Of a stretch of 64,000 nt of DNA, positions 13,791 to 64,000 are shown piece after piece. The DNA lies in NCBI GenBank assembly GCA_030390025.1, contig CM059431.1, forward strand, positions 142,726,001 to 142,790,000, given 5' to 3'. The DNA comes from Squalus acanthias (lineage: Eukaryota). How positions within the stretch are numbered: the first letter of the stretch is position 1; the number at the start of each line of letters is the position of its first letter. The notes beneath the pieces were generated by a model. It was not told the origin of the DNA and did not search any database. It saw nothing but the letters and a program-made list of their open reading frames with translations. Made by a program: the position numbers and the translations under genes.

Positions 13791-16700
13791 TTGAGGCATT
13801 GGGACCAGTTTTGTGGTAGGTGTGACCTATACAAAAGGGACGGTCTACACCTGTGCAAAGATGGAACTGAGGTTCTCGGGGTAAATTTTGATAAAGCAGT
13901 TCGGGAGCATTTAAACTAGTATGGCAGGGGGCTAGAAACCCATGTAGTGAAATAGAGGAAAGTGAAAGGCAGACAGAAATAAATGGTAAAAAGGAGAGGA
14001 ACAAAAAACAAAGGGCCAAACTAATTCATAAAAAATGTGAGCATAAAAAAAGCCTGAGGGTTTTATACCTTAATGCGAGAAGCATCAGGAACAAGGTAGA
14101 TGAATTAGCTGTGGAAATAGAGGTTAATAATTATGATCTAATTGGGATTACGGAAACATGGTTGCAGGGTGAGCAGGGCTGGGAGCTTAACATACAGGGG
14201 TATTCAGTATTTAGGAAGGATCGACAAAAAAGAAAGGGAGGAGGGGTAGCATTGCTGGTAAAAGAGGGGATAAATGCAATTGAAAGGAAGGATATTAACT
14301 CAGTTAATACAGAATCTATATGGGTGGAGCTAAGAAATAGCGAGGGGCGAAAAACATTAATAGGAGTGGTATATAGGCCTCCAAATAGTAAAATAGAGGT
14401 TGGGGAGGGCATCACGAGGGAAATTAGAGAAGCGTGCAATAAGAGCACAGCTGTCATCATAGGTGACTTTAACTTACATATAGATTGGACTAGCCTAATC
14501 AGTAAAAATAATGAGGAGGAGGAATTCCTTGAGTGTTTAAGGGATGGTTATCTGGATCAATATGTCGAGGAACCAACTCGGGAACAGGCTATATTGGACT
14601 GGGTACTGTGCAATGAGAAGGGACTAATTAGTAATCTTGTTGTACGGGGACCCTTGGGTCAGAGCGATCATAACATGATCGATTTCTCACTCGAAATGGA
14701 AAGCGAAGAAATTGACTCAGAGACTCAGGTCCTGAATTTAAACAAGGGGAATTATGATGCCATTAGACGGGAACTGAGTAGGTCTGATTGGACAACGTTC
14801 CTGGGAGGACTGAAGGTAGATAAACAATGGCAAGCATTTAAAGATAGAATGACAAAATTGCAAAAATTGTTTATACCAATCTGGCATAAAAGGAAATCTA
14901 AAAAGGTGACTCAACCGTGGATAACAGGGGAAATTAGAGACAGCATAAAATCCAAAGATAGGGCGTATAAAATAGCCAAAAAACGCGCCAGAGCGGAAGA
15001 TTGGGAACAGTTTAAGATAGAGCAAAGGAGGGCAAAGGGCTTAATCAAGAAGGGCAAAATAGCTTACGAAAGCAAGCTGGCGGAAAATATAAAAACTAAC
15101 TCCAAAAGCTTTTATAAGTATATCAAGAGGAAAAGACTGGTGAAAACCAAAGTTGGTCCATTGCAGTCAGATACGGGGGAATATATAATGGGAAATAAGG
15201 AAATGGCAGACCAACTAAATGCATACTTTGGGTCAGTCTTTACGAAGGAAGACACAAAAAACCTCCCTGGGATATCGGGAAAAATAGGGACATTGGCAAA
15301 GGAGGAACTGACGCAAATCAATATCTCTAAGGATATGGTGTTAAGGAAGCTAAAGGGATTGAAGGCGGACAAATCCCCAGGGCCTGATAACATGCATCCT
15401 AGGGTACTGAAGGAGGTGGCCCTAGAGATAGCGGATGCACTAAGCATGATTTTTCAGAATTCATTAGACTCGGGAACAGTGCCCATGGATTGGAGGGTAG
15501 CTAACGTTACCCCACTATTCAAAAAGGGGGGTAGGGAAAAAGCAGGTAATTACAGACCTGTAAGCCTTACATCAGTTGTGGGCAAAATGCTGGAGTCCAT
15601 CATTAAGGATGAAATAGCCGAGCACTTAGCAAATGGGGACAGGATAGGACAGAGTCAACATGGATTTACAAAGGGTAAATCGTGCTTGACTAATCTATTG
15701 GAATTTTTTGAGGGAGTAACTGGTAAAATAGATGGCGGAGAGCCAGTAGATGTGGTGTACCTGGACTTCCAAAAGGCCTTCGATAAGGTCCCACATAAAA
15801 GATTAGCATGGAAAATTGAAGCTCATGGGATAAAGGGGAAAGTATTGACGTGGATAGAGAACTGGCTGTCAGATAGAAAACAGAGAGTTGGAATAAACGG
15901 CTCATTTTCTGAATGGCAGGCAGTAACAAGTGGGGTACCACAGGGATCTGTCCTGGGTCCCCAGCTGTTCACAATTTATATTAATGACCTGGATCAGGGA
16001 GTCGAATGCAGCATTTCCAAATTTGCAGACGACACTAAACTAGGAGGGGGGGTGGGCTCAGAGGAGGAGACCAGGAAGCTCCAGAGCGATTTGGACAGAC
16101 TGGGTGATTGGGCGGATAAATGGCAGATGCACTATAATGTGGACAAGTGCGAAGTTATCCACCTTGGGTGCAGGAACGGGAGGGCAAATTATTATTTAAA
16201 TGGCAATAAATTGGGAGAGGGGGAAGTACAGAGAGACCTGGGTGTTCTTGTACACCAGTCACTGAAGGCGAGCATGCAGGTGCAACAGGCGGTCAAGAAG
16301 GCAAACGGTATGCTGACCTTCATAGCAAAAGGGTTGGAATACAGGAACAGGGATACCTTGCTGCAGCTGTACAGGGCACTGGTGAGACCACACCTCGAGT
16401 ACTGTGTACAGTTTTGGTCGCCTCATCTGAGGAAAGATGTTCTTGCCATGGAGGGGGTGCAGCGGCGATTCACCAGGCTGATACCAGGAATGGCGGGATT
16501 GACCTATGAGGAGAGACTATGTAGTTTAGGGATGTACACACTGGAGTTTAGAAGATTGAGAGGGGACCTCATAGAAGTGTATAAAATTCTGACAGGTCTA
16601 GACAGATTAGATGCAGAAGGAATGTTTCCCTTGGCGGGTGAGAACAGAACTAGAGGACATAATTTAAGGATAAGGGCTAAACCATTTAGGACAGAAATGA

Positions 16701-16961
16701 GGGGGAATTTCTTCACTCAGAGAGTGGTGAACCTGTGGAACTCATTGCCACAGAGGGCAGTGTACGCCAGCTCATTAAATATATTTAAGAGGGAATTAGA
16801 TATATTTCTACAGGCAAAAGGGGTTAAGGGTTACGGAGAGAAGGCGGGGACGGGATACTGAATTGAAGGATCAGCCATGATCTCATTAAATGGCGGAGCA
16901 GGCTCGAAGGGCCGGATGGCCTACTCCTGCTCCTATCTTCTATGTATCTATGTATCTATGT
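13791..16961 (+). mobile_element. Young CR1 LINE, 5'-truncated within ORF1, with uninterrupted ORF2
   Basis: ORF1 C-terminus LRHWDQFCGRCDLYKRDGLHL...REHLN* (13791-13919), then ORF2 and a (CTATGTAT)n tail. Possible ATCA target duplication. Confidence 0.97.
13910..16861 (+). CDS. CR1 ORF2: APE endonuclease + reverse transcriptase (frame open from 13895)
   Basis: YLNARSIRNK, ITETWL, VYRPP, GDFN and SDH (APE); KSPGPD, NYRPVSL, DFQKAFD, GVPQGS and FADD (RT). No stops or frameshifts. Confidence 0.93.
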   Translation, partial: FKLVWQGARNPCSEIEESERQTEINGKKERNKKQRAKLIHKKCEHKKSLRVLYLNARSIRNKVDELAVEIEVNNYDLIGITETWLQGEQGWELNIQGYSVFRKDRQKRKGGGVALLVKEGINAIERKDINSVNTESIWVELRNSEGRKTLIGVVYRPPNSKIEVGEGITREIREACNKSTAVIIGDFNLHIDWTSLISKNNEEEEFLECLRDGYLDQYVEEPTREQAILDWVLCNEKGLISNLVVRGPLGQSDHNMIDFSLEMESEEIDSETQVLNLNKGNYDAIRRELSRSDWTTFLGGLKVDKQWQAFKDRMTKLQKLFIPIWHKRKSKKVTQPWITGEIRDSIKSKDRAYKIAKKRARAEDWEQFKIEQRRAKGLIKKGKIAYESKLAENIKTNSKSFYKYIKRKRLVKTKVGPLQSDTGEYIMGNKEMADQLNAYFGSVFTKEDTKNLPGISGKIGTLAKEELTQINISKDMVLRKLKGLKADKSPGPDNMHPRVLKEVALEIADALSMIFQNSLDSGTVPMDWRVANVTPLFKKGGREKAGNYRPVSLTSVVGKMLESIIKDEIAEHLANGDRIGQSQHGFTKGKSCLTNLLEFFEGVTGKIDGGEPVDVVYLDFQKAFDKVPHKRLAWKIEAHGIKGKVLTWIENWLSDRKQRVGINGSFSEWQAVTSGVPQGSVLGPQLFTIYINDLDQGVECSISKFADDTKLGGGVGSEEETRKLQSDLDRLGDWADKWQMHYNVDKCEVIHLGCRNGRANYYLNGNKLGEGEVQRDLGVLVHQSLKASMQVQQAVKKANGMLTFIAKGLEYRNRDTLLQLYRALVRPHLEYCVQFWSPHLRKDVLAMEGVQRRFTRLIPGMAGLTYEERLCSLGMYTLEFRRLRGDLIEVYKILTGLDRLDAEGMFPLAGENRTRGHNLRIRAKPFRTEMRGNFFTQRVVNLWNSLPQRAVYASSLNIFKRELDIFLQAKGVKGYGEKAGTGY

Positions 16962-31351: not shown

Positions 31352-31900
31352 GGCCCAAAAATTAGTGAGGGAGCCTTCGTGCGGGGGTATGGCTTCCCCG
31401 CGATATCTCACTGTGCGCCGGCTTTTTCATTCCCAGCTCGCACGAACTTGATTTTCTGGACAGCAGCTGGGCAGTGCTTGCATATCCCACAGGCGCAGTT
31501 AATTCGTGCGAGCTGTGGGATCACGTGATTCAGTTAGAGCCAAAGGCAGCACACAATCTTTCATTCATAGTTTTCACGTCAAGTGCTGTGAAAGCTATGA
31601 ATCTATACCCCCCCAAAAGAACAGCTAAACCTCAATTAAATTTAAAAAAAAACCATCACATTAATAAAATAAGTATAGTTAAATAAATTAACCACTTTAA
31701 ACAAGAAATTAAATTTTTGAAAAAAATTAAAACTTTTAAAAAGTTATAAAAATAAACTTACCTTTCTTTAAAGTCTCTAAAAAAGATATACCTGTTGAAA
31801 AAAATTCAAAATAATACTTAATTAACTACTTACCTTGTTAAAAGAGGGTCTTACGCCTCCTTTCTTCATGTGCAAAATCTTCCATGCTTACCTGCGCGTT
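31352..31900 (-). mobile_element. MITE copy (same family as 4806-5564), partial
   Basis: Starts GGCCCAAAAATT; reverse-complement homology to ~5000-5564. Confidence 0.75.
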
Positions 31901-37884: not shown

Positions 37885-39621
37885 CTCAACACCCGGCATT
37901 TGTGCAGTACGGGTCCCAGCCGCTGGAGTCCGTCACACTGAACGGAGCAGTTCTCCAGATCAAGATGCTTTACTGTATCACAGAGTCCAGTGACATGAGA
38001 CAGGACCGCACAGTCAATCGGGGTCAGTCGCAATCCATTAAATGTAAGTGATTCCACAGATCCCACTGTTTTCCGAGCCAGTGCTTTATTCTGAGACTCA
38101 AACAGGTAGTGGAATGTGTTTAGGAGGTTCCTTTTACCAGTTTCACTCCCTGTGTTCCCAATCTGTGCTTCAATCTTCTCATCACCCAGTCAATCACTCG
38201 GCAGGTGGTTTGATGAAGAAATGGACCCAGAAACTCCTCCAGGGGCCGAGCTGCCTGTGGGGAGGAGAGACCAGCAACAAAACGGAGAAATATCTCAAAT
38301 CGCCCATCTTCCTCGCGGTGGGATTCTCTGAGGAGTTTCAGGATGTCCCCGGGATCTGGAGTCAGGAATTGTGCGAGTGCGGCTACAAACTCTTGGATGG
38401 TGAGGTGCGGGAATGTGTACACCACGCTCTGGGCAGATTCATCTCTCTCCAAAAGTTCCATCATGAACCCAGACAGGAACTGGGAAGGTTGCAGATTGTA
38501 CTTGATCAAATCTCCATTTCTAAACACAATCTTCTTCTCGGAGACTCCTGTGAAGGCCATCTCACCAAGCTTCAGTAACACATCACGGGGGCTTTCAATC
38601 TCTCGGCCATGGTTTTTCAGAATGTTGTAAATATAGTAGGAATATAGTTGGGTGATGGTCTTGGGAACTCGCTGCTGATTCCTGTCTCTTTGTGTGAAGA
38701 AGGGACCCAGTGACAAACCGAGGATCCAGCAGTAGGAAGGGTTGTAGCACATGGTGTACAGGATCTCGTTCTCCTCCACGTGTTTGAAAACAGCTGCTGC
38801 CACCGTCTGATCCTCAAAAAACTTGTTGAAATATTCCTTCCGTTTTTCACCAACAAATCCCAGGATTTCAGCCCAGACACTGATCTCAGCCTTTTCCAAT
38901 AAATGTAATGCAGTGGGGCGGCTGGTCACTAGCACTGAACATCCTGGGAGCAGCTTGTGCTGTATTAAACTGTACACAATGTCAGACACTTCACACCAGT
39001 CTTCGGGATCTGTGCACATGGACTGAGGTTCTGTATTTCTCCGATTGTCAGCAAAATCGATCCTGTCCTTGAATTCATCCAAACCATCGAATATAAACAA
39101 CAATCCCTCTGGGCTCTTCCAGAGCTCTCCCAGAACATTCCCAAAGTAAGGATACAGATCCAATATCAGATTCCTCAGGTTTATTCGACAGTTAATAGCA
39201 TTCAAATCCCGGAATTTAAAGCTGAAAATAAATTGAAAGTGTGGGTATATTTTCCCAGTGGCCCAGTCATGAACAATCTTTTGCACCATTGTTGTTTTTC
39301 CAATCCCCGGGACTCCGCTTACTGCTCCTGAACTCCCAGATTTGGATTTTCGCTGGGAAAAACTGCTCTGGAACAATTGATCAGTTCGGATTTTTTCCAG
39401 CTCTTTCCGGAGATGTTGCTCTCTCCACTCTTCATGGTCTCGGCCTCTTGCCAGCAGTTCATGTTCTACAAGTGTCCGATCTCGAACAGTAGAAATGACC
39501 GTTAGCTCAGCGTATCGATCAACCAGCTGAAAAATCTTAACCTTCTCCTTTATTAGGATAGTGTTCACTCTCAGTGTTTCAGTTTGTACCCGGAGTGTCT
39601 CCTTGTGTTTCTGTTGAACAT
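37885..39621 (-). CDS. NLR (NLRC3-like) NACHT exon; 1-nt frameshift near 38182, so possibly a pseudogene
   Basis: TAATTTAAG acceptor (DVQQKHKETLR...), Walker A GVPGIGKTT, Walker B LLFIFDGLDE, VLVTSRP and FPHLTIQEFVAA. After the frameshift it continues NLLNTFHYLFESQN...LTPIDCAVLSHV...LHKCRVL to a GTAAC donor. Confidence 0.92.
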
Positions 39622-39899
39622 CTTAAATTAGAACAGACAGAAAGATCAGACATAAAAAAAACTTCTCAATAACATTTCGCTATTCAGTAAAATGTTGCAA
39701 GGTTTAATTCACAGCTTCAATAGAGGCATGTGTTGAAATTAAAACTCAGTTAATGGAAACCTCGCTTGAAAGTGAACAATGGCCGAGAAAAGTTTCAAAT
39801 CCTCTCTTGATTCTAATATTCACTGAACATGCAGGTTTCAATGATATGACTTTTACCTCTGATGGTTAATACTTTCCGGCCTGCTCTTTTCTATTGACA

Positions 39900-42800
39900 T
39901 CTCCTCGCGGCTGGAAAAGAACTTTGAATGGGAGGGGGAGGATCCAGTTGTCGTGGTCCACGTAGGAACCAAAGATATAGGTATAACTAGGAAAGAGGTT
40001 CTACTGATGGAGCGTGAGAAGCTAGGATCCAAATTAAAAAACAGAACCTCAAAGGTAATAATCTCTGGATTGGTACCTGAGCCATGTGCAAATTGGCACA
40101 GGGACAAACAGGATAGAGGTTTAACTGAGTGGTTCAAAGAGTGGTGTGGGAGGAAGGGCTTTCAGCTAATGGGGCACTGGCACCAGTACTGAGGAAAGAG
40201 GGAGCTGTTCCTTTGGGACGGGCTCCATGGGGCTGGGACCAGTGCCCTGGCGAACCGAATAACTAGGGCAGTAGACAGGGCATTAAACTAATGAAGGGGT
40301 GGGGGTGGGAGACTCCAGGAAAGAGTAAATTTAAAAGCAGTGAGAGAAATGTCAAGGCTCTGGAGCCAAGTAGAGTTTTGGGTAAAAATAAGCAGAGTGC
40401 GTCAGGATGTGACAGAGACTAACAAAGGTAATAAGGCATCAGTGACTAAGGTGACATCAGGGAAAAATAGAAATAAGTCAAAGCTAAAGGCACTATATCT
40501 GAATGCGTGAAGCATTCACAACAAAATAGATGAATTAATACTGCAGACAGAAATTAACAGGTTAGATCTAATCGCCATAACGGAGACGTGGTTGTAAAGT
40601 GGCCAAGGTTGGGAACTAAATATTTCAGGATATTTAACTTTTAGAAGAGTTAAGCAAAATGGAAAAGGAGGAGGGTTAGCCCTGATAATGAAGGATGGGA
40701 TAAAGACAGTAGAGAGAAAGGATCTTACCTCTGAAAATCAAGAAGAAGTAGAGTCAGTTTGGGTGGAGCTAGGAAACAGCAAGGGGCTGAAAACATTGGT
40801 GGGAGTTGTGTATAGGCCCCCAAATAGTAGTTGTAACGTAGGGCAGAGTACAAAACAGGAAATTAAACGCACATGTAACAAGGGTAATAGAGTAATCATG
40901 GGGGACTTTAATCTACATATAGACTGAGCAAACCAAATTTGCAGTAATACTGTGGAGGACGAATTCACGGAATGTATGCAAGTTAAGTTTGTAGATCAGT
41001 ATGTTGAGGAACCAACTAGGGAACAGGCTATTTTAGATCTAGTATTGTGCAATAAGAAAGGATTAATTAATAATCTTGTAGTAAAGGGGCCTTTAGGGAA
41101 GAGTGACCATAATATGATAGAATTTTATGTTGACTTTAAAAGTGATTTAGTTAAATCTGAAACTAGGGTCTCAAATCTGAACAAAACAAACTAAGTAGTT
41201 ATGAGGGGCGAGTTGGCTGAGGTAGATTGGGAAACTACATTAAAAGGTATGACGGTAGACAAGCAATGGCTAGCATTTAAAGAATTAATACATAATTTAC
41301 AACAACTATACATTCCTTTAAGGCACAAAAACCCCACAGGAAAAGTGCTCCAACCGTGGCTAACAAGAGACATTAAAGATAGTATTAGATCAAAGGAAGA
41401 TGCTTATATTGTTGCCAAAAAGAGTAGTAAGCCTGAGGTTTGAGTGTATTTTAGAATTCAGCAAAGGAGGACCAGAAACTGATAACGAAAGGGAAAATAG
41501 AACACGAGAGTAAATTTGCGAGAGACATAAAAACAGACTGTAAAATCTGCTATAGTTCTGTAAAAAGGGAAAGATTTGTGAAAGTAAATGTGGGTCCTTT
41601 ACAGACTGAGACAGGAGAAATTATAATGGAGAATAAGGAAATGGCAGATAAATTAAACAAATAAATACTTTGTGTCTCTCTTCACGGAAGAAAAATGCAA
41701 AAAACTTCCTGGAAATAGTGGAGAACCAAGGGTCCAGCGAGAATGAAGAACTGAAAGAAATTAGTATTAGTAAAAAAAAAAGTACTGGATAAATTAATGG
41801 GACTGAAAGCTGATAAATCCCTTGGACCTGATGGCCTACATCCTAGGGTTTTGAAAGAGGTGGCTATAGAGATAGTGGATGCATTGGTTGTCATTTTCCA
41901 AAATTCCATCGATTCTAGAATGTTTCCCGCGGATTGGAAGGTAGCAAATGTAACCCCACTATTTAAGAAAGGAGGGAGAGAAAATGGGGAACTACAGACC
42001 GGTTAGCCTGACATCAGTCATAGGGAAAATGATAGAATCTATTATTAAGGAAGTGGTAACAGGGCACTTAGAAAATAATAATAGGATTGGGAGGATTTAT
42101 GAAAGGGAAATCGTGTTTGACGAATCTGTTAGCGTTTTTTGAGGTTGTAACTAGCAGAATAGATAAGGGGGAACCAGTGGATGTGGTGTATTTGGATTTT
42201 CAGAAGGCATTCGATAAGGTGCCACACAAGAGGTTATTAAACAAAATTAGGACTCATGGGATTGTGGGGTAATATACTAGCATGGATTGAGGATTGGTTA
42301 ACGGACAGAGAAGAGAGTCGGAATAAACGGGTAATTTTCTGGTTGGCAGGCTGTAACTAGTGGGGTATTGCAAGGATTAGGGCTTGGGCTTCAGCTATTC
42401 ACAATCTATTTCAATGATTTGGATGAGGGAACCAAATGTAATATATCTAAGTTTGCTGATGATTCAATGCTGGGTGGGAATGTAAGTTGTGAGAAGGTTG
42501 CAAGAAGGCTTCAAGGGGATATAGACAGGCTAAGTGCGTGGGCAAGAACATGGCACATGGAATATAATGTGTAGAAATGTGAATTTGTCCACTTTGGTAG
42601 GAAAAATAGAAAAGCAGAATTTTTTTTAAATGGCGAGATTAGGAAATGTTGGTGTTCAGAGGGGCCTGGATGTCCTTGTACACGAATCACAAATTTAACA
42701 TGCAGGTACAGCAAGTAATTAGGAACGCAAATGGCATGTTGGCCTTTATTACAAGAGGATTTGAGTACAAGAGTAAAGACATCTTACTGCAGTTATATAG

Positions 42801-46784: not shown

Positions 46785-46952
46785 GCTGTTCCGCGATTCG
46801 GATGTGGAGCTGCGGCTGGAGTCACTGTGGTGCATCCGCGAGGCTGAGATCTACGTGGACAACACGTTTAACGAGGTGATCACACCGCAGATAAAGAGTG
46901 CAAAGGCAGAAAGGGAATGGGTGACTGCCAGACAGAGTAAAAGAACTAGGAA
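46785..46952 (+). mobile_element. CR1 copy A, left part (ORF1 coiled-coil region)
   Basis: ELRLESLWCIREAE...VITPQIK...REWVTARQSKRTR, homologous to ORF1 at 56260-56400. Confidence 0.85.
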
Positions 46953-47591
46953 ACTAAACTAAAGTGGCAGGGGGTTGGGCACCTGAGCAGGGAGGCAGAG
47001 GAAAGCGTGTCAGGAAGGGACAGAAGGTATGGAGTAAAAGGTAAAGTGTTAAAAAAAGAAAAAGCAGGAACTAAGTGTCACAAAACATATTTGAAAGTTC
47101 TTTATCTGAATGCACATAGCATTCGTAACAAAATGGACGATTAACGGCACAAATAACTACGTATGGGTATGATCTTGTGGCCATTACAGAAACATGGCTG
47201 CAGGGTGACAACGACTGGGAATTAAATATGCCAGGGTATTTAACAATCAGGAAGGACAGGCAGGAAGGAAGGGGATGTTAATAAAGGAAGGAATCACTGT
47301 AATACAGAGAAATGATATTGGGTCAAAGGATCAGGATAATGAAACAGTTTGGGTGGAGATAAGGAATAATAAGGGGAAAAAAACTAGTGGGAGTAGTATA
47401 TAGGCCTCCTAATAGTTGCAACTCTGCTGGAAGAAGTATTAATCAGGAAATAGTTGGGGCATGTAATAAGGGAACTGCTATAATTATGGGGGATTTTAAC
47501 TATCATATTAACTGGACAAATCAAATTGGGCAGGGCAGCCTTGAGGAAGAGTTTATTGAGTGTCTTAGGGATGGATTTCTTGAGCAGTATG

Positions 47592-47785: not shown

Positions 47786-47863
47786 ATTTAATCAACTTTG
47801 AAAAACTTCGCACTCAAACTTTTTGGACGAACTCGGAGCTAAGGATCCAGGGAATCACCCATC

Positions 47864-50800
47864 ATGGAAAACATCCATAAACCATCGCGTCTTGACTTGG
47901 ACCCAAACACCCCAGCAGCCGGTAAGGTGTGGAAACACTGGTATCGCACGTTTGACAATTTTCTCGAATATTGCAAGGCTGATGATGACTCAAAATTGCG
48001 GATACTCATTAACTGTGTCACCCCGAATGTATTTCAGTATGTCGAGGAATGGGGCAGTTACGAGGAGGCAATTCGGACGCTTAAAAGACTATATACTAAG
48101 ACACCGAATGAGGTCTATGCCAGACATCTACTAGCTAAAGCCCAACAAGGGCCGGAGGAATCCATTGATAAATTCCTCCAAGAGCTTCGCAGACTTAGTA
48201 TGGACTGTAACTTTCAGGCGGCCTCAGCTGAGCTGTACCGTGAAGAAATGATCCGTGATGCTTTCATCTGCGGGCTTGCCTCCCCATTTATACGCCAGCG
48301 TCTACTGGAAAGTAAGACACTTGAGCTTCAGACAGCTTATGACATGGCTTGCTCTCTAGATCTGGCAAAAAGAAATGCAGACCTTTATACAGTGCCCAGA
48401 CCTCGGTCTGCTGCCTTAACTACAGTCAGGCAATTTAAGAGGCCACAGGTGAACTCTATTAGGGAGGACTTTATCCCTGACGATCAATCTGATGACTTCA
48501 CTGATGAAGAGGATGATGACCCCACTGTGGCAGCCTCTTGGCAATCTAAGAAATGCTTCTTTTGTGGTGATGAGTTTCACCCTCGGAAATTCTGCCCTGC
48601 TCGCAATGCGTTTTGCAGTCATTGCAACAAAAAGGATCATTTTGCAAAGGTTTGCCTATCAAGAGCCTCTACGAGGGCTTATCAAGCTAAGTCCTACCGA
48701 ACTGCCCCGGTAAGGGCCTATCAAGATGTTCCGGCTAAAATCTATCGTGCTTCCTCTCGGGTTTTCTCTCGAAGAAACACACCTAGAGTTTCAGCCACTC
48801 TTTGTGCAACGACACCAATTACAGCTGCTTGTCCTCAGAACCTATTCCATGCAGCTACAAAAGCAACAATTAATGGACATACTTTAGATGCCTTAATTGA
48901 CTCAGGTAGCACTGATAGTTTCATTAGGGAACAGATTGTTGCAGAGTTAAAGCTACATGTTTTCCCATTGGACCAGGCAATTGCGATGGCTCAGTCATCA
49001 CTTAATACCAGAATTTCTGGCTTTTGTATGGTTGAAATAACACTTAATGGTGACAGGTATCCCTCCACCCGGCTTTCGGTGCTCAAGGACTTATGTAGTG
49101 ATCTTATCTTAGGGCTAGATTTTCAAAAGCAGCATAAGAAGCTCACCATTGAGTTTGGCGGATCCAAACCTGAACTCACTATTTCTAATATACGACCTCG
49201 ATTACCGTTCTGTGCATTGTCAGCAGCTTCACTGGATGAACCCTCACTGTTTACCAGTATCCCTCCTCGATGCAAACCGATTATAACAAAGTCACGACGT
49301 TTCAGTCAGGAAGACCAGTCTTTTATTGCGGCTGAGATTTCTCGGCTTTTAGCAGAGGATATCATCGAGCCTTGTTCGTCGCCATGGCGCGCCCAGGTCG
49401 TTATTGTTAAGAACCCTCTACAACCTCACAAGAAACGGCTGTGCATTGACTATTCACAGACCATCAATCAATATACGGACTTGGACGCATACCCATTGCC
49501 GCGCATCGATGATATGGTTAATAAACTGGCTGAGTACACGGTGTTCTCAACATATGATCTGAAAAGTGCCCATCATCAGGTACCCTTGAAGGTCTCAGAC
49601 AAGCAGTATACGGCCTTTGAAGCCAATGGACGGCTGTATCAATTTCGTCGCCTCCCCTTTGGGGTCACTAATGGAGTGGCTGTCTTCCAGCGAGCAATGG
49701 ATGACCTGGTCAAACAGGAAGACTTAAAGGATACGTTTCCTTATCTGGACAATATTACTGTCGCAGGTCGCAATCAGCGGGAACATGACGCCAATCTCCA
49801 ACGATTTTGGGATGCACTCCAGCACCGTAATTTGACATTAAATGCGGCTAAATCCATTGAGTCACAACCAACCATCAACATCCTTGGCTATTGTGTGGGC
49901 AATGGCATCATTAAACCTGACCCTGAAAGGCTTCGCCCACTCCAAGAACTCCCGCCACCTAAGAATCCGGCCTCCTTGCGCCGGGCCCTCTGCCTGTTTG
50001 CATAGTATGCTAAATGGATTCCTAACTTCTCGGACCGAATCCAACCTCTACTGAAGGCCAGCACATTCCCACTAGACACAGCGGCTGTTGCAGCCTTTAA
50101 CCTCCTGAAAAAACAGTTGGAGAAAGCGGCTCTTCACTCCATCGATGAGAGTCTTCCTTTTGTTGTTGAGTGTGATGCCTCGGAGGTGGCGATTTCGGCC
50201 ACTCTGAATCAGGAAGGTCGTTCGGTGGCATTTTTGTCCAGGACTTTTCAAGGGGCTGAGCTACATTATCCTCCAGTCGAGAAAGAAGCTACAGCCATCA
50301 TAGAGGCAGTACGGAAGTGGACTCATCTCCTAGCTCGCCAGCACTTTACCTTAATCACGGACCAGCGATCGGTCGCCTTCATGCTCGATAATCGAAAACG
50401 GACCAAAATTAAAAATAATAAAATCCAGCTTTGGCGGCTGGAATTGGCCTCTTTTGGTTACACCATCCACTATCGACCTGGCAAGGAGAATGTGGCTCCC
50501 GATACCCTCACACGAGCATTCTGCTCCGCCATGGCACCCTCTACGCTCGTAGACATCCATGATGGGTTGTGTCATCCGGGCGTTACTCGCATGCTACACT
50601 TCGTGCGGTCCCGAAATCTCCCATTCTCTACCGGGGATGTAAAGAAGATGTGCTCGGACTGCAGAGTCTGTGCGGAATTGAAACCTCAGTTTTTCCGCCC
50701 CTCGGGTGGTATACTCATACATGCGACCCAGCCAATGCAACGGCTTAGCATCGATTTTAAGGGGCCGTTGCCCTCTTCAACTCGCAACACTTATCGATTG

Positions 50801-51270
50801 ACCATGGTCGATGAGTATTCCCGTTTTCCGTTTGCCTTTCCCTGACCCAATATGCTGACGACCACGGTTATCAGCTGCCTTGAGCAGGTATTTGCTTTCT
50901 GTGGCATGGCATCCTATGTTCATTCGGATCGGGGCCCTTCTTTTATGTCAGGAGAACTCAAGGCCTATCTCTCGGAACGGGGTATTGCTGCCAGCAGAAC
51001 GACGCCTTATCATCCGGTCTGAATGGGCAAGTCGAGCGTTTTAACGCTATCATCTGGAATGCGGTACGTCTGGCTTTGAGATCTCGGGGCCGACCCAACC
51101 AGCAATGGAAAGCAGTACTTCCAGACGCATTACACTCCACACGGTCCCTCCTTTCGACCGCCACAAATACGATGCCTCATGAACGATTCTTCCGATTTCA
51201 GCGTCGCTCATCCTATGGGCTATCTCTCCCGTCGTGGCTGACTGCACCGGAACCAGTGCTACTCCGAAGA
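47864..51270 (+). pseudogene. Gypsy gag-pol polyprotein, disrupted by stops (TAG 50003-50005, TGA 50843-50845) and integrase deletions
   Basis: Knuckles CFFCGDEFHPRKFC and CSHCNKKDHFAKVC; protease LIDSGS; RT PFGVTN and YLDNI; RNase H VECDAS and TDQRS; integrase H..H..C..C, IDFKGP and VHSDRG. Confidence 0.93.
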
Positions 51271-51842
51271 TGAGGTTGAGCTCACTGATGTCAACCCTAC
51301 CTACGCCTATATTCGGTATCCTGACGGTCGGAAATCTACCGTGTCATTGCGGGATCTGGCTCCCTGCCCGCCGAAACATAGAGGGACACCAGGGGATGAT
51401 ATTGTACCAGGCACATCTCTGAGCTCGCCAGGTGCTTCTCATCACGATCTGGATCTGACGCCGGCTGGTACCTCACTCCAGCGTGCCGACCTGGGGCAGA
51501 CTGACTATGAGCCCGTCGGGGCTCGCACGCGCAGCCACGATCCACCCCGTACCATACGCTCGGAAACATATCTTCCACAGCCCTGCCCGACACCCGTTCG
51601 GGCACCAGTACACAGTCAGGATCGTCCTGACCCCTCACAGAGCGGGCTGGATCACTCGGACTCTGGTCCACGGCCCGCGGCAGGTAAACGGGCTAGGGGC
51701 CCTCTACCGCTACGAGAACCCAAACGGGTGCGGCTCTCCCTCGTCCAGCGGCTACGAAATGGAGGGAGAATGTGGTAACACAATACAGCTTCCTGTGACT
51801 CGAACTTCATCCCGGCCTCCTAATCTTTTGGGGGGGGGAGAA

Positions 51843-54527: not shown

Positions 54528-55733
54528 TAGGAAGGTATTGCAGGAGTCCCCTGGGTCCATCTCCCTCTCCAACAGATTTTCCGTTTTGGATACTGCTGGG
54601 GAGATGGTTTCTCAGGGGAATGCAGCAAGAGCCAAGTCCGTGGCACTACGAGTGGCTCAGCTGCACAGGAGGGGAGGAAAAAGAGTGGGAGAGCAATAGT
54701 GATAGGGGATTCTATCGTAAGGGGAACAGATAGACGTTTCTGTGGCCGCAGACGTGACTCCAGGATGGTATGTTGCCTCCCTGGTGCCAGGGTCAAGGAT
54801 GTCACTGAGCGGCTACAGGACATTCTGAAGGGGAGGGTGAACAGCCAAAGGTCGTGGTCCATATCGGTACCAACGACATAGGTAGAAAGAGAGACGAGGT
54901 CCTGCAAGCAGTATATAGGGAGCTAGGAAATAAATTAAAAAGCAGGACTCAAAGGTAGTAATCACAGGATTACTCTCAGTGCCACGTGCTAGCGAGAGCA
55001 GAAACAGGAGAATAGACCAGATGAATGCGTGGCTGGAGAGATGGTGTAGAAGGGAGGGATTTAACTTCCTGATGCATTGGGACAGATTCTGGGGAAGGTG
55101 GGACCTGTACAAGCTGGACGGATTACACCTCGGCAGAACCAGGACCAATATCCTCGCAGGGTGTTTGCTGGTGCTGTTGGGAAGTTTTTAAACTAGTTTG
55201 TCAGGTGGCTGGGAACCTAAGTGTGGGCCCAGAACGGAGAGAAACAAAGCTGGAAGTGCAAGTTAGAAAAGTAGTCAGCAAAACTAGTAGGGAGCAGAAA
55301 CAAAGGCCAACAGTAAAGGGGGTCAAAGTGCAGAAAAATATTAAACAAGCAACGTTGAAGGCACTTTATCTAAATGCATGTAGCATTCGCAACAAGGTGG
55401 ATGAATTAATGGAACTAATGGTAGTAAATGGGTATGATGTAATTGCCATTACAGAGACATGGTTGCAGGGTAACCAAAGCTGGGAACTGAATGTTCCAGG
55501 GTACTCAACATTTAGGAAGGACAGACAAAAAGGAAAAGGAGGTGGCAAAACACTGTTAATAAGGGATGAGATCGGTACGGTAGAGATAAAAGATCTTGGC
55601 TCGGCAGACCGTGATGTAGAACTGGAATCAGTTTGGGTGGAGCTAAGAAAGAGCAAAGGGTGGAAAACATTGGTGGGAGCTGTGTATAGGCCACCAAACA
55701 GTAGTGGTAATGTAGGGCACAGTATCAATCAAG
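54528..55733 (+). mobile_element. CR1 copy A, right part (ORF1 esterase + start of ORF2 endonuclease)
   Basis: RKVLQESPGSISLSNRF, VIGDSIVRG, DGLHL, then KALYLNACSIRNK...VYRPPNS. Truncated where CR1 copy C begins. Confidence 0.9.
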
Positions 55734-58700
55734 AGGCCAAACCTCGGGAGATTTCTAAGGTGAGCGAGAGCGGCTGGAGGGCGCCAAACCTCGGGAGATT
55801 TCAAAGGTGAGCGAGTGCGGCTGGAGGGCGCCAAACCTCGGGAGATTTCAAAGGTGAGCCGGGGCTACAACGGACCGGTGAATGTAAAGAAGTAAAAAGT
55901 AATCGAAGTGTGACATCATCAGAAAGCAGGTAAGTGACTGGCTGGTGAGTATTTCTCGCTTTCTCGCTTTTTTCCTAACAATTTTTGTGGTTTATAGTTT
56001 CTAAGTTCTCTGTTGTGTGGCAGGGAGTGCTAATAAACAAGGGCCCTTAAGTATATCATTTAATTGTAGTGTAATTGGTGGTAGTGATTTGGTTTAATTT
56101 AATTTGAATTAAAGGGTAAGTCATGGCAGCACAGCTCGGCCCCGTGGCATGCACCTCCTGCACTATGTGGGAAATCAGGGACACTTCCTGTGTCCCCGAC
56201 GACCATGTGTGCGGGAAGTGTATCCAGCTGCAGCTACTGGCAGACCGCATTGTGGCGCGGGAGCTGCGAATGGATACATACTGGAGCATTCGCGATGCTG
56301 AGGACATTGTGGATAGCATGTTTAGGGAGTTGGTCACACCGCAGGTAAAGGCTGCACAGGCAGGAAGGGAATGGGTTACCGCCAGGCAGAGTAGTAGGCA
56401 CAGGCAGGTAGTGCAGGGATCCCCTGTGGCCATCCCCCTCTCAAACAGATATACCGCTTTGGATATTGTTGGGGGAGATGGCTTATTGGGGGAAGGCAGC
56501 AGTAGCCAACTTCCTGGCACCATGGGTGGTTCTGCTGCACAGGACGGGAGGAAAAAGAGCGGGAGAGCTATAGTGATAGGGGATTCTATTGTAAGGGGAA
56601 CAGATAGGCGTTTCTGCGGCCGCAAACGAGACTCCAGGATGGTATGTTGCTTCCCTGGTGCAAGGGTCAAGGATGTCTCGGAACGGCTTTCTGGAGGGGG
56701 AGGGTGAACAGCCAGCTGTCGTGGTGCATATAGGTATCAACGATACAGGTAAAGAACGGGATGAGGTCCTAAAGCTGAATATAGGGTGTTCGGAGGTAAA
56801 TTAAAAATAGGACCTCATAGGTAGTCATCTCAGGATTGCTACCAGTGCCACGTGCTAGTCAGAGTAGAAATAGAAGGATATTTCCGATCAATACGTGGCT
56901 AGAGGAATGGTGCAAGGGGGAGGGATTCAAATTCCTGGGACATTGGAACCGGTTCTGGGGGAGGTGGGACCAGTACAAACTGGACGGCTTGCACCTGGGC
57001 AGGGCCGGGACCTATGTCCTAGGGGGAGTGTTTGCGAGTGCTGTTGGGGAGGGTTTAAACTAAAATGACATGGGGGTTGGAAACCTGTGCAGGCAGACAG
57101 AGGGAAGGGAAGCAAGGATAGAAGCAAAAGACAGGAAGGATCAAATCAATAGTGGAAGGCAGAGAAATCAAGGGTGTAAATGAAACAGGGCCACAGTAAA
57201 TAATAATTCTAAAAGGACGAACAGTGCTAAAAAAACAAGCTTGAAGGCTTTGTGTCTTAATGCGAGGAGCATTCGTAATAAGGTGGATGAATTAGCTACA
57301 CAAATAGATGTAAACGGATGATATAATTGGGATTACGGAGACATGGCTCCAGGGTGGCCAAAGCTGGGAATTCAACATCCAGGGGTATTCAATATTCAGG
57401 AAGCACAGGCAAAAAGGAAAAGGAGGAGGGGTAGCATTGCTGGTTAAAGAGGAGATTTACACAATAGTAAGGAAGGATATTAGCTCTGATGATGTGGAAT
57501 CTGTATGGGTAGAGCTGAGGAATACCAAGGGGCAGAAAACTTTAGTGGGAGTTGTATACAGACCCCCAAACAGTAATGCTGAGGTTGGGGAAGGCATTTA
57601 ACGGGAAATTAGAGACGCGTGCAATAAGGGCACAGCAGTTATCATGGTTGACTTTAATCTACATATAGATTGTGCTAACCAAATTAGTAACAATACTGTG
57701 GAAGAGGAATTCCTAGACTGTATACGGGATGGTTTCCTGGACCAATATGTCGAGGAACCAACCAGAGATCAGGCCATCTTAGACTGGGTATTATGTAATG
57801 AGAAAGGATTGATTAGCAATCTTGTTGTGCGAGGCCCCTTGGGGAGGAGCGATCATAATATGATCGAATTCTTCATTAAGATGGAGAGTGAAGTAGTTGA
57901 CTCAGAGACTAGGGTCCTGAATTTAAGTAAAGGAAACTGCGATGGTATGATGCACAAGTTGGCTAGGATGGATTGGGGAACATAGCTTAAAGGGTTGACG
58001 GTGGATAGGCAATGGCAAACATTTAAAGATCGCATGGATGAACTACAGAATTTGTTCATCCCTGTCTGGCATAAAAATAAAACAAAAAAGGTGGCGCAAC
58101 CGTGGCTAACAAGGGAAATTAGGGATAGCATAAGATCCAAGGAGAGGACATATAAATTGGCCAGAAAAAGCAGAAAACTTGAGGATTGGAAGCAGTTTAG
58201 CATTCAGCAAAGGAGGACAAATGGATTAATTAAGAGGGGGAAAATAGAGTATGAGAGTAAGCTTTCATGGAACATAAAACCTGACTGTAAAAGCTTCTAT
58301 AGATATGTGAAGAGAAAAAGATTGGTGAAGTCAAGCGTAGGTCCCTTGCAGTCAGAATCAGGGGAATTTATAATGGGGAACAAAGAAATAGCTGACCAAT
58401 TAAATACATACTTTGGTTCTGTCTTCACAAAGGAGGACACAAATAACCTCCCAGAGATGTCGGGGAACATCGGGTCTAATGAGAGCGAGGAACTGAATGA
58501 AATCACTATTTGCAGGGAACTGGTGTTAGGGAAATTGACGGGATTGAAGGCCGATAAATCCCCAGGGCCTGATAATCTACATTGTAGGGTACTTAAGGAA
58601 GTGGCCCTAGAAATAGTAGAGGCATTGCTGATCATCTTCCAAAATTCTATAGACCCTGGCACAGTTCCCATGGATTGGAGGGTAGCTAATGTAACCCGAC

Positions 58701-60134
58701 TATTTAAAAAAGGTGGTAGAGAGAAAACGGGGAATTATAGACCAGTAAGCCTGACATCGGTAGTGGGGAAAATGCTAGAGTCAATTATAAAAGATGGAAT
58801 AGCAGAGCACTGGGAAAAAAGTGGCAGGATCGGACAAAGTCAACATGGATTTACAAAAGGTAAATCATGCTTGACTAAGCTACTGGAATTTTTTGAGGAT
58901 GTAACTGGTAGAATAGATAAGGGAGAACCAGTGGATGTGGTGTATTTGGACTTTCAGAAGGCTTTCGATAAGGTCCCGCATAAGAGATTAGTGCAAAGTT
59001 AAAGCACATGGGATTGGGGGAAAGGTACTGACTTGAATGGAGAACGGATTGGCAGACAGGAAGCAAAGAGTTGGAAAAAAGACCCGTTTATTCCGAGTGG
59101 CAAGCAGTGACTAGTGGGGTACCGCAGGGATCGGTGCTAGGACGCCAGCTATTCACAATATATATTAATGATCTAGACGAGGGAACTAGATGTAATATCT
59201 CCAAGTTTGCAGACGACACAAAGCTGGGTGGGCGTGTGTGCTGTGAGGAGGATGCAGAGAAACTCCAGTATGAGTTGGACAGGTTGGGTGATTGGGCAGA
59301 TGCATGGCAGAGGCAGTATAATGTGGATAAATGCGAGGTTATCCACTTTGGTGGCAAAAACAGGAAGGCAGATTATCTGAACGGCAATAGATTGGGAGAA
59401 GGGGAAGTGCAACGAGACCTGGGTGTCCTTGTGCACCAGTCGCTGATGGTAAGCATGCAGGTGCAGCAGGCGGTTAAGAAGGCAAATGCTATGTTGGCCT
59501 CCATAGCGAGAGGATTCGAGTACAGGAGCAAGGATGTCTTGCTGCAGTTGTACAAGGCATTGGTGAGACCACACCTTGAGTAGTGTGCGCAGTTTTGGTC
59601 GCCTTATCTGAGGAAGGATGTTCTTGCCATGGAGGGAGTGCTGCGAAGATTCACCAGACTGATATCCGGGATGGCAGGAATGACGTATGAGGAGAGATTG
59701 GGTCGATTGGGCTTATATTCGCTGGAGTTTAGAAGAATGAGAGGGGATCTCATTGAAACTTATAAAATTCTAACAGGACTAGACTGACTAGATGCATGAA
59801 GGATGTTCCCAATGGCGGGGGAGTCCAGAACCAGGGGTCACAGTCCAAGGATAAGGGGTAAGCCATTTAGGACTGAGATGAGGAGGAATTTCTTCACCCA
59901 GAGAGTGGTGAACCTGTGGAATTCTCTACCACAGAAGGCAGTTGAGGCCAATTCATTAAATATATTCAAGAAGGAGTTGGATATATTTTTTAAGGCTAAA
60001 GGGATCAAGGGATATGGGGAGAAAGCAGGGACAGGGTATTGAATTTCGATGATCAGCCATGATCTCATCAAATGGCGGAGCAGGCTCGAGGGGCCGAATG
60101 GCCTACTCCTGCTCCTATCTTCTATGTTTCTATG
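55734..60134 (+). mobile_element. Full-length CR1 LINE (copy C): 5' UTR, ORF1, ORF2, tail; both ORFs disrupted
   Basis: 5' UTR with three tandem CCAAACCTCGGGAGATTTC-AAGGTGAGC units; ORF1 from 56123; ORF2 fragments to 60042; (CTATGTTT)n tail. Confidence 0.95.
56123..57063 (+). pseudogene. CR1 ORF1: CxxC-CxxC zinc finger/leucine zipper + SGNH (GDSL-like) esterase, frameshifted
   Basis: CTSC...CGKC, PLSNRY, IVIGDS, VHIGIND, DGLHL; ends GEGLN*. Confidence 0.9.
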
Positions 60135-61369
60135 TGCAGAAGTTCCACCGTTCGTGTGTCAGGTCCAGGGCAGGTTATCTGGGGTAATGTGTGCACTGGG
60201 AGAGGGACAGACTGTGAATGTACATAACTTCCACTGTTACTGTATCAGACCGTGGACAGTTTATATGGTGTCCTGTGTTCACTGGGCGAGGGACATTCTG
60301 TGAAAAGAGAGAAGTTACACCGCTAGGTTGTCAGGTCCTGTGTGTCTTTCTAATCATCTAATCACAGGAAGAATGCTATTGCAATGGTGAAGGTGCAGAG
60401 AAATACAAGATGATTATGGCACAATTAATGCGGTGTTAGATCAGTTTCACTTGAAATAAGACATTGGATATTGAATTATTGATCTGAATTTCGAACGGAA
60501 TTCACATAATTAATGCCGAAATGAGAAAAATAATGATCACAATTAATTATGAGACGCCAGGAGTAAGAAGGGAAATCAGGGTAATCGTTTTCACCAAAGT
60601 GTAATAGAGTGGGAGATCAGTTACCAGGGAGGACACTATGGGGCAGTGTAATTGGGAACAAGAGACAATTGGTTGTGTTTCTGTGGATAGACTGAGAGGA
60701 GGGGCAGGTGGGTTCATCTCTAACAGGGACAGACTTGTTTGGACCAAAGTGGCCTTTTGTTCCCCTAAATATCCTCCTGTTGTGATTCAAAAACTGAACA
60801 GTTTTCAGTAATTTTACACTTATATTATTTTTATGTAAGTCTCATCTGATAACCGATCAGAATCAGAAATAGAACTATCGCCCACTCCACTCAGTATTAT
60901 GTCAGGGAAGAAAAGATTGAGAGTTCATTTCAACAGTTACGATCATTAAATTCCATCGTTTCATTTGGATACGAGTTTCCTACAATGTAGTTTTGAAAAT
61001 TACGCATATGTTTCTGATAATCAGTAAATTGGGAATCAAAATCCTCCTGAATGAAAGGGGGCTTCTTCAGTACAACAAGCCCCTCTGTGCCTAGTTTGAA
61101 TGATTCACTGCCAGTGGGAATCGGTCCAATCAGTTTCTAATCACGCATAACATGTCCTTTATCACATGTTCCTCCTCGGTTAATGTTTGATTGAGTGAAC
61201 GTCTGTACATCTTCTCAGATTGGATTGAACACGATCGGATATTTCATGACATGATGTACAACGGTGATACTTAACGGTTTCCCATTTCTCGGCCACTATT
61301 CCGACAGTTTATGCTGGAATAGAAGCGCCAGTAGCACAGTAACTTCCACATCAGGCTCAAGGTCCTGTG

Positions 61370-64000
61370 TGTCACAGGGTATAATGATCCTGCCAGGTGT
61401 GTATGGGGTTTCACAGTGTATCAGGATCCTGCCAGGTGTGTATGGGGTTTCAGTGTATCAGGATCCTGCCAGGTGTGTATGGGGTTTCAGTGTATCAGGA
61501 TCCTGCCAGGTGTGTATGGGGTTTCACAGTGTATCAGGATCCTGCCAGGTGTGTATGGGGTTTCAAAGTGCATCAGGATCCTGCCAGGTGTGTCTGGGGT
61601 TTCACAGTGTATCAGGATCCTGCCAGGTGTGTATGGGGTTTCACAGTGTATCAGGATCATACCAGGTGTGTATGGGGTTTCACAGTGTATCAGGATCCTG
61701 CCAGATGTGTATGGGGTTTCGCAGTGTATCAGGATCCTGCCAGGTGTGTATGGAGTTTCGCAGTGTATCATGATCCTGCCAGGTGTGTATGGGGTTTCGC
61801 AGTGTATCAGGATCCTGCCAGGTGTGTATGGGGTTTCACAGTGTATCAGGATCCTGCCAGGTGTGTATGGAGTTTCACAGTGTATCAGGATCCTGCCAGG
61901 TGTGTATGGGGTTTCACAGTGTATCAGGATCCTGCCAGGTGTGTATGAGATTTCACAGTGTATCAGGACCTTCCAGGTCTGTATGGAGTTTCACAGTGTA
62001 TCAGGATCCTGCCAGGTGTGTATGGGGTTTCACAGTGTATCAGGATCCTGCCAGGTCTGTATGGAGTTTCACAGTGTATCAGGATCCTGCCAGGTGTGTA
62101 TGGGGTTTCACAGTGTATCAGGATCCTGCCAGGTGTGTATGGGGTTTCACAGTGTATCAGGATCCTGCCAGGTGTGTATGGGGTTTCACAGTGTATCAGG
62201 ATCCTGCCAGGTGTGTATGGGATCGCACAGTGTATAAGGATCCTGCCAGGTGTGTATGGGGTTTCACAGTGTATCAGGATCCTGCCAGGTGTGTATGGGG
62301 TTTCAGTGTATCAGGATCCTGCCAGGTGTGTATGGGGTTTCAGTGTATCAGGATCCTGCCAGGTGTGTATGGGGTTTCACAGTGTATCAGGATCCTGCCA
62401 GGTGTGTATGGGGTTTCACAGTGTATCAGGATCCTGCCAGGTGTGTATGGGGTTTCACAGTGTATCAGGATCCTGCCAGGTGTGTAGGGGTTTCACAGTG
62501 TATCAGGATCCTGCCAGGTGTGTATGGGGTTTCACAGTGTATCAGGATCCTGCCAGGTGTGTATGGAGTTTCACAGTGTATCAGGATCCTGCCAGGTGTG
62601 TATGGGTTTCACAGTGTATCAGGATCCTGCCAGGTGTGTATGGAGTTTCACAGTGTATCAGGATCCTGCCAGGTGTGTATGGGGTTTCACAGTGTATCAG
62701 GATCCTGCCAGGTCTGTATGGAGTTTCACAGTGTATCAGGATCCTGCCAGGTGTGTATGGGGTTTCACAGTGTATCAGGATCCTGCCAGCTGTGTGTATG
62801 GAGTTTCACAGTGTATCAGGGATCCTGCCAGGTGTGTATGGGGTTTCACAGTGTATCAGGATCCTGCCAGGTGTGTATGAGATTTCACAGTGTATCAGGA
62901 CCTTCCAGGTCTGTATGGAGTTTCAGTGTATCAGGATCCTGCCAGGTGTGTATGGGGTTTCACAGTGTATCAGGATCCTGCCAGGTGTGTATGGGATTGC
63001 ACAGTGTATAATGATCCTGCCAGGTGTGTATGGGATTTCACAGTGTATCAGGATCCTGCCAGGTGTGTATGGGGTTTCAGTGTATCAGGATCCTGCCAGG
63101 TGTGTATGGGGTTTCAGTGTATCAGGATCCTGCCAGATGTGTATGGGGTTTCACAGTGTATCAGGATCTGCCAGGTGTGTATGGGGTTTCACAGTGTATC
63201 AGGATCATACCAGGTGTGTATGGGGTTCCGCAGTGTATCAGGATCCTGCCAGGTGTGTATAGGGTTTTGCAGTGTATCAGGATCTTGCCAGGTGTGTATG
63301 GAGTTTCGCAGTGTATCAGGATCCTGCCAGGTGTGTATGGGGTTTCACAGTGTATCAGGATCCTGCCAGGTGTGTAGGGGTTTCACAGTGTATCAGGATC
63401 CTGCCAGCTGTGTGTATGGAGTTTCACAGTGTATCAGGGATCCTGCCAGGTGTGTATGGGGTTTCACAGTGTATCAGGACCTTCCAGGTCTGTATGGAGT
63501 TTCACAGTGTATCAGGATCCTGCCAGGTGTGTATGGGGTTTCACAGTGTATCAGGATCCTGCCAGGTGTGTATGGGGTTTCACAGTGTATCAGGATCCTG
63601 CCAGCTGTGTGTATGGAGTTTCACAGTGTATCAGGATCCTGCCAGGTGTGTATGAGATTTCACAGTGTATCAGGATCCTGCCAGGTCTGTATGGAGTTTC
63701 ACAGTGTATCAGGATCCTGCCAGGTGTGTATGGGGTTTCACAGTGTATCAGGATCCTGCCAGGTCTGTATGGAGTTTCACAGTGTATCAGGATCCTGCCA
63801 GGTGTGTATGGCGTTTCACAGTGTATCAGGATCCTGCCAGGTGTGTATGGGGTTTCACAGTGTATCAGGATCCTGCCAGGTGTGTATGGGGTTTCACAGT
63901 GTATCAGGATCCTGCCAGGTGTGTATGGAGTTTTAGTGTATCAGGATCCTGCCAGGTGTGCATGGGGTTTCGCAGTGTATCAGGATCCTGCCAGGTGTGT
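61370..64000. repeat. Satellite, 39-bp unit GTGTATGGGGTTTCACAGTGTATCAGGATCCTGCCAGGT with 37-bp variants, running off the window
   Basis: Directly visible; gives 13-aa periodic spurious ORFs. Confidence 0.98.

Follow-up and report, generated by a model that had tools for sequence, protein, structure and literature searches.

Positions 54529 to 55735 of the window (the whole stretch of Squalus acanthias DNA that was analyzed, 64,000 nucleotides) hold the ORF1/ORF2 junction of a dead CR1 LINE of the esterase-ORF1 type. The copy is 1.2 kb in size; its left edge lies directly behind the octamer tail of an upstream CR1, its right edge is the start of the leader repeats of the next CR1, and no reverse transcriptase (RT) of its own was found further downstream. 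The following features were identified.

54529..55196, plus strand: 3′ part of CR1 ORF1 with the SGNH/GDSL esterase domain, 5′-truncated and frameshifted (profile and protein identity)
55187..55193, plus strand: candidate −1 shift site U_UUA_AAC, made up of the last two ORF1 codons and the preceding wobble base
55194..55196, plus strand: ORF1 stop codon TAG directly behind the heptamer (TAA or TAG in other window copies)
55197..55351, plus strand: A-rich linker, open in the −1 frame and ATG-free in all frames
55200..55218, plus strand: short G-rich tract, about 6 to 20 nt 3′ of the heptamer, a candidate stimulator or coding conservation
55352..55735, plus strand: N-terminal part of the ORF2 AP endonuclease up to the end of the copy, without RT (tblastn, 61% to the copy at 13910)
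55736..55860, plus strand: tandem ~47-bp leader repeats of the next CR1, marking the 3′ edge of the fragment

Composition of the fragment and its surroundings

Three-frame translation places four one-base frameshifts in ORF1, near 54600, 54830, 54950, and 55160. An SGNH esterase domain, as expected of an esterase-ORF1 CR1 LINE, was recognized from a Pfam PF13472 match on 54934 to 55158 (E value, 4.4e−5, under the curated cut-off), from 62 to 78% identity to full ORF1 proteins, the nearest named of which come from sharks and rays, and from a match of the ORF1 family profile to PDB entry 4C1B, "ORF1-encoded protein" (E value, 4.5e−48). Approximately the first 130 codons of ORF2 are present, and this endonuclease part matched PF03372 with an E value of 1.8e−4, again under the cut-off. 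The initial annotation gave the ORF as 55205 to 55810; endonuclease homology within it ends near 55735, at the first leader repeats of the next CR1. With copies referred to by the position of their heptamer, the AP endonuclease of a CR1 ORF2 is found in the 55187 copy itself; the RT, which this fragment lacks, is found in a 74%-identical neighbor and the 13910 copy.

Related window copies finish in a 3′ hairpin and an octamer-repeat tail without poly(A) (10131, 16918, 54485, and 60100); the fragment itself has no 3′ end. Its junction and flanks agree by eye with rows labeled LINE/CR1 in the visible part of the consensus rows of PMC13343379. In the available passages of PMC4120745, vertebrate canonical CR1 with an esterase ORF1 corresponds to CR1 subgroup 7 with ORF1 type IVB. 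As described there and in the available text of PMC13343379, such elements carry a zinc-finger/zipper and esterase ORF1 and an ORF2 with AP endonuclease and RT; the window copies have the octamer-repeat 3′ tail.

The fragment is the second of three CR1 elements of different subfamilies that lie head to tail on the same strand between 52020 and 60135. The first ends at ~54527, and the third, near-full-length, spans 55736 to 60135. Elsewhere in the window, an LTR (Gypsy-like) element at 47843 to 51778 interrupts a CR1 endonuclease; it carries gag, protease, and RT in one 720-codon frame, behind which the RNase H and integrase frames are broken. A 500-codon NACHT-like frame at 38120 to 39622 on the minus strand, together with leucine-rich-repeat-like exons at 31072 to 31407, probably represents an NLR immune gene, judging from translation. 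Two single-exon GPCR-like frames were seen at 6351 to 7331 and 19970 to 20689, the second apparently broken, and long tandem-repeat arrays at 26700 to 28290 and 61330 to 63940 give rise to repetitive open frames.

Frame geometry and the five junctions of the window

The final ORF1 codons of the 55187 copy are TTA AAC TAG, and the positions read in the sequence bear out the initial annotation in placing TTTAAAC at 55187 to 55193 and TAG at 55194 to 55196. The zero frame here contains an X_XXY_YYZ heptamer, and the ORF that follows is read at −1. The −1 frame, TTT AAA CTA GTT TGT CAG GTG GCT GGG AAC (FKLVCQVAGN), is without stops from 55073 to 55810 and runs into KALYLNACSIRNK; that it is open and ATG-free up to this motif was correctly recognized, while the supposed beginning at 55205 is merely a GTG start within the longer open frame. 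No ATG occurs in any frame over the 183 nt from the heptamer to the LNA codon at 55370. When the linker of the 55187 copy was shuffled, a stop-free frame was obtained in 137 of 5,000 shuffles and ATG was absent from 1,539 of 5,000 (31%), so the missing ATG was rejected as evidence by itself. The motif TTTAAACTA occurs three times in the window against 0.51 expected, a count reached in 3 of 100 shuffles, and all three matches are ORF1/ORF2 junctions.

The junction had been described as the second of its kind, but the window holds five, two of which have non-triplet linkers. The four comparison copies are listed here.

13910..16861, plus strand: TTTAAAC TAG; 159-nt open linker; intact 983-codon ORF2 (endonuclease and RT) in which no in-frame ATG precedes the endonuclease motif
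40282..40501, plus strand: ATTAAAC TAA TG; 217-nt non-triplet linker; decayed ORF2
46953..47108, plus strand: ACTAAAC TAA; 153-nt open linker; borders on an internal deletion in ORF1
57054..57258, plus strand: TTTAAAC TAA; 202-nt non-triplet linker with stops; decayed ORF2

TAAAC-TAR is common to all five junctions, and their endonucleases are 67 to 79% identical. In three of them the linker is open, has a length divisible by three (153 nt at 46953, 159 nt at 13910, and 183 nt at 55187), and leads AUG-less into an ORF2 at −1; the remaining two frames of these linkers contain two to eight stops. As had been noted, the linker of the 55187 copy is unlike that of the 13910 copy (183 versus 159 nt, 62% identity, against 71% over the first 300 nt of the endonuclease), with heptamer, stop, and frame kept. 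Both non-triplet copies (40282 and 57054) carry further breaks in the ORF2 frame. In the 40282 copy, the stop shares bases with an ATG that is in frame with ORF2 (TAATG, 40289 to 40293), and the heptamer reads ATTAAAC where matching published rows have TTTAAAC; the linker of this family would be triplet by one published row and non-triplet by another, the rows being gappy. At 46800 to 46960, a deletion takes out the whole esterase domain of a CR1 and rejoins at Leu-Asn-stop, such that the ORF1 frame and the open −1 linker survive. An overlapping ORF2 start further upstream was rejected, since in the 13910 and 40282 copies the −1 frame is closed by stops 6 to 7 codons ahead of the heptamer.

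Searches for a frameshift stimulator gave no canonical stem-loop or pseudoknot 5 to 9 nt downstream of the window heptamers. Folding z-scores 3′ of the five heptamers were −1.3 to 0.0, with no stimulatory structure; the consensus fold contained only a 4-bp stem (−2.1 kcal/mol) with no covariation; a stem scan found nothing over 6 bp; and an Rfam search at the junction returned no relevant match. The junction is therefore not classed as a canonical pseudoknot-type signal. The G-rich tract is the sole feature shared 3′ of the heptamers and may simply encode W-Q-G-x-G (−1 frame W-Q-G-x-G-N).

Conservation of the junction in CR1 and related elements

Contigs from three public sequencing runs (2,549, 4,072, and 4,957 records) were aligned to 54960 to 55500 at 80% likeness; a fourth, raw-read run contributed six reads. 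Two indel rows were found in the aligned contigs, both in ORF1 at 55158 to 55160, and none in the linker, across which some individual contigs show one or two gaps. Among the 40 of 92 substitution rows listed, none fell within 55187 to 55196, and those at 55182, 55185, and 55186 indicate that relatives have an Asp or Gly codon ahead of TTA. Of the 27 listed rows in ORF1, 12 were third-position, and 9 of these 12 were synonymous. The public-run look-up listed no RNA data set containing the stretch.

A wider comparison drew on the consensus rows in supplementary Table 2 of PMC13343379, of which the first 400 letters per row were inspected by eye. Within this portion, TTTAAACTA had 23 matches, 17 of them at an ORF1 end upstream of endonuclease, in rows from sharks to crocodilians. 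The 17 junction rows are labeled AldAff, AllMis (two), AmiCal, AquCat, CalMil, CroPor (three), HypSab, LatCha, PriPec, ScyCan (two), and SquAca (three), and in the visible part of the table the AldAff row is classed as Crack and the other 16 as CR1. We take these labels to stand for a ray-finned fish, alligator, bowfin, bullfrog, elephant shark, crocodile, stingray, coelacanth, sawfish, catshark, and dogfish. As a search with TTTAAACTA selects for the motif, alternative spellings were also searched in the first 400 letters per row. None of 47 matches to CTG, TTG, CTC, CTT, or CTA followed by AAC and TA, and none of 10 with A, C, or G before TTAAACTA, lay at an esterase ORF1 end; one alternative-spelling match upstream of an endonuclease start was in an L2 row. 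AAT spellings gave none at a junction among the 11 of 20 matches listed, and TGA-stop spellings were covered in part. On three pages of shark and ray rows not selected for the motif, TTTAAAC was present in all six fully visible junctions, one of them without a stop; the ScyCan-13 row has the heptamer with no stop behind it. The consensus rows are gappy, and birds, turtles, and squamates lie outside this DNA-level comparison.

In the intact ORF2, TTA accounts for 17 of 96 Leu codons and AAC for 20 of 51 Asn codons, from which, by our own arithmetic, a TTTAAAC-type spelling would arise by chance in about 1 to 2% of cases per lineage. Conservation of the heptamer at the nucleotide level goes beyond protein need, with 17 junction matches against 0 of 57 for alternative spellings in the visible part of the rows (AAT and TGA spellings covered in part). 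The sequences thus show the frame geometry of the window junctions, a heptamer conserved in its nucleotides, and no conserved start codon. The initial annotation had suggested selection on the junction. At the level of the lineage, this is supported by the fixed synonymous sites and by the whole-codon linker lengths of the three open window copies. It does not extend to the 55187 copy, for which ongoing selection was rejected because the copy is truncated and frameshifted; as this is a dead 1.2-kb fragment, any selection would have acted on the source lineage. These sequence comparisons make it very likely that vertebrate CR1 LINEs have a conserved recoding site at the junction.

The codon behind CTA is not conserved as a start, being GTT, GTA, or AAG in window copies and AGC, GGT, GAT, GGG, ATT, or GTG in the visible part of the published rows. 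This variation speaks against termination-reinitiation, in which ribosomes would stop at the ORF1 TAR and restart at −1, through an overlapping AUG as in SART1 or AUG-independently as in L1, to make a separate ORF2p. Both routes have precedents in the available text of PMC3894237 (SART1) and PMC5972666 (L1), and TAATG in the ORF2 frame is present in the 40282 copy and, as far as the rows are visible, in ScyCan-1a, SquAca-17a, and SquAca-6c, all three with TTTAAAC. Reinitiation also predicts open triplet linkers and is in keeping with the failure to find a frameshift stimulator at the window junctions. The overlapping stop-start is nevertheless limited to the 40282 subfamily and some published rows and is lacking in the 55187 copy, which reads TAG TTT and is ATG-free for 183 nt. 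Moreover, reinitiation leaves unexplained both the synonymous fixation of the seven bases before the stop and the alternation of LN, GN, and KN ends described below, and we consider it unlikely. A combination of both mechanisms, with frameshifting ancestral and a TAATG restart added in some subfamilies, would account for the retention of TTTAAAC in the visible SquAca-17a, SquAca-6c, and ScyCan-1a rows. Many different codons occur at that position, however, so that an ATG there may be neutral, and we consider the combination highly improbable. Use of the TAG as a splice acceptor is also unlikely and was rejected, the stop often being TAA instead.

The C-termini of ORF1 homologues were compared at the protein level. 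A DGxH motif is present in 104 homologues, of which 58 have LN and 9 have GN as the final dipeptide. In a reduced set of 81 representatives, from which 5 run-through proteins and the first-search matches were left out, 54 have a terminal dipeptide that one of the canonical heptamers can encode (LN, 44; GN, 9; KN, 1), against an internal-dipeptide background of 5 to 7%, and 27 have other endings. At tail lengths other than 26, LN, GN, or KN ends occur in 25 of 49. A quick tree of the esterase domain, built with the last residues left out, placed 32 LN ends within a clade of 34 rows (SH-aLRT, 96), with two further LN-rich clades, and brought GN, KN, and LN together in one clade of 18 rows (SH-aLRT, 95). 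Several representatives are near-identical in the esterase domain, and the 81 rows therefore amount to few, nonindependent clades. LN, GN, and KN are the dipeptides encoded by U_UUA_AAC, G_GGA_AAC, and A_AAA_AAC, the GN, KN, and nonvertebrate LN ends being known from protein alone. According to the available text of PMC5009743, these three heptamers are among the shiftiest on mammalian ribosomes. Two of the shark-type LINE ORF1 proteins, P0007 and P0008, carry bacterial names (Proteus and Pseudomonas) and are probably host contamination of assemblies.

More distant relatives were sought in a metagenome scan, which yielded 58 loci, none of them vertebrate-type CR1. Of 28 full-length esterase ends, 23 have TGA, 19 TGA-C, and 14 TGA-CTA, and none has a heptamer. 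An endonuclease lies downstream at 18 loci, in the same frame as ORF1 at 13, at +1 at 4, and at −1 at 1; no further stop separates the two in 12 of the 13 same-frame loci, where the gaps are 165 to 384 nt. UGA-CUA is a described readthrough context (PMC4132726, in the passages available), and loci with a TGA-CTA ORF1 end and a same-frame endonuclease (L002:2733, L006:990, L010:743, L013:616, L017:2825, and others) are candidates for stop-codon readthrough in a LINE. Junctions such as those of L002, L006, and L013 resemble the UGA-CUA readthrough of alphaviruses and the OPRL1 group covered in the available part of PMC4132726. We found no report of such readthrough in LINEs in the literature searched. 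As most of the gaps between ORF1 and endonuclease hold in-frame ATGs (there are none in L002 and L018), reinitiation is a possibility at these loci too. Readthrough is not the mechanism of the window copy because its ORF2 is out of frame. In this sister clade, ORF1 often has AAC or AAT as its last codon and ORF2 starts with CTA, an arrangement also seen at the −1 junction, and one may speculate that duplication or loss of 4 nt would interconvert the two junction types. Among bacterial SGNH controls, a heptamer preceded the stop at 0 of 18 loci and a TGA-C end was seen in 0 of 15 full-length loci. Viral contig scans returned no true relative, the one locus considered (L001) being rejected as a chance match, and a GTDB scan returned bacterial esterases only.

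Terminal Asn is common in the UGA-CUA clade too and may therefore be kept for another reason. Its recurrence there would fit a motif that is maintained outside translation, either as a Leu-Asn C-terminus needed by ORF1p or as an RNA or DNA signal, with ORF2 made from a separate transcript or from a downstream internal start. Internal Met codons do occur in the linkers of P0018, P0019, and P0171. Against this, protein need cannot fix synonymous bases, many homologous esterases lack the LN end, and the Met upstream of the endonuclease in predicted ORF2 proteins varies in position from 1 to over 100 residues, with no in-frame Met in three window copies; this explanation is very unlikely. In P0018, P0019, and P0171, the esterase continues through FKL into the endonuclease in one reading, with open −1 linkers of other lengths, in records that are short and broken. 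No intact natural in-frame ORF1-ORF2 fusion was found in the protein search, which is a weak test; one 594-amino-acid esterase-endonuclease read-through was found in a ray.

Proposed programmed frameshifting in CR1 and its implications

The reading we favor is that programmed −1 frameshifting at U_UUA_AAC probably yields an ORF1-ORF2 fusion at a low level in active source elements. In such elements, a ribosome at the end of ORF1 would hold UUA in the P site and AAC in the A site, with the stop codon next. The majority of ribosomes would terminate to give ORF1p with a Leu-Asn C-terminus, and a small fraction would slip one base back onto UUU AAA and read CUA into the linker, endonuclease, and reverse transcriptase. 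ORF1p would then be abundant, ORF2p scarce, and a start codon for ORF2 dispensable. Speculatively, the pause would probably come from the adjacent stop codon and/or the G-rich tract, not from a pseudoknot. The available text of PMC5009743 reports that −1 shifting in pea enation mosaic virus requires a stop codon close by, a requirement that does not depend on 3′ structure, and that stimulation of shifting by G-quadruplexes has so far been seen in synthetic constructs only. That the heptamer and stop are shared from sharks to crocodiles suggests that the copying enzyme is made through a retrovirus-style slip of the ribosome by one base.

Viral −1 frameshifting as covered in the accessible part of PMC5009743 (U_UUA_AAC in IBV; retroviral gag-pol) offers the same heptamer and a like arrangement, with a structural-protein ORF upstream and a polymerase ORF at −1. 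CR1 differs from the viral sites in that no 3′ pseudoknot or stem-loop was detected and the stop lies directly behind the heptamer. Among APE-type non-LTR elements, a −1 frameshift is stated to be necessary for ORF2 of Dictyostelium TRE5-A and TRE3-A (figure legend of the review PMC5911963, available in part). Their ORF1 and host are unrelated to CR1, and the passage gives no shift site or experiment, whereas CR1 has a defined heptamer across jawed vertebrates. The available portions of PMC5006619 and PMC3159450 hold nothing further on this frameshift, and those of PMC4255032 and PMC2734521 were uninformative. Coupling at UAAUG in SART1 (PMC3894237) and unconventional reinitiation in L1 (PMC5972666), as far as those texts were available, likewise provide ORF2 at a low level from a bicistronic LINE RNA, and some CR1 subfamilies carry TAATG. 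In contrast to both, most CR1 junctions, including the 55187 copy, are AUG-less at the stop, and the slippery heptamer is kept throughout.

The available text of PMC3894237 calls the translation of ORF2 in LINEs an open question; the described answers are reinitiation (SART1 and L1) and 2A skipping. Across the available parts of PMC3894237, PMC5972666, PMC3708506, and PMC4120745, translation of LINE ORF2 is ascribed to reinitiation, IRES ideas, or 2A, or is not treated. Frameshifting has no mention in the main texts of PMC4120745 and PMC13343379 to the extent available, whose passages do not address ORF2 translation; the main text of the latter, within the same limits, has no match for overlap, start codon, or translat-. 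The available frameshifting text of PMC5009743 does not mention CR1, and the accessible supplements of PMC4316615 and PMC2817409 contained 3′-end matches only. No report of CR1 frameshifting was found in the literature searched, and the 1997 papers on chicken and turtle CR1, Repbase notes, or supplements may already remark on the overlap.

The 55187 copy is dead and of value as a witness only. With a shift site defined in CR1, the question of ORF2 translation could be put to the test with a single synonymous mutation. If frameshifting is correct, CR1 ORF2p would bear the ORF1 esterase at its N-terminus, the inconsistent starts of annotated CR1 ORF2 proteins would be explained, and engineered CR1 retrotransposition constructs would require an intact junction. 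In addition, −1 frameshifting in vertebrates would gain a very widespread chromosomal example. More tentatively, recoding may be how esterase-ORF1 LINEs of animals in general produce their reverse transcriptase, in the form of a Gag-Pol-like fusion of ORF1 and ORF2; these LINEs include the retrotransposon that dominates in sharks and crocodilians and probably also in birds and other reptiles.
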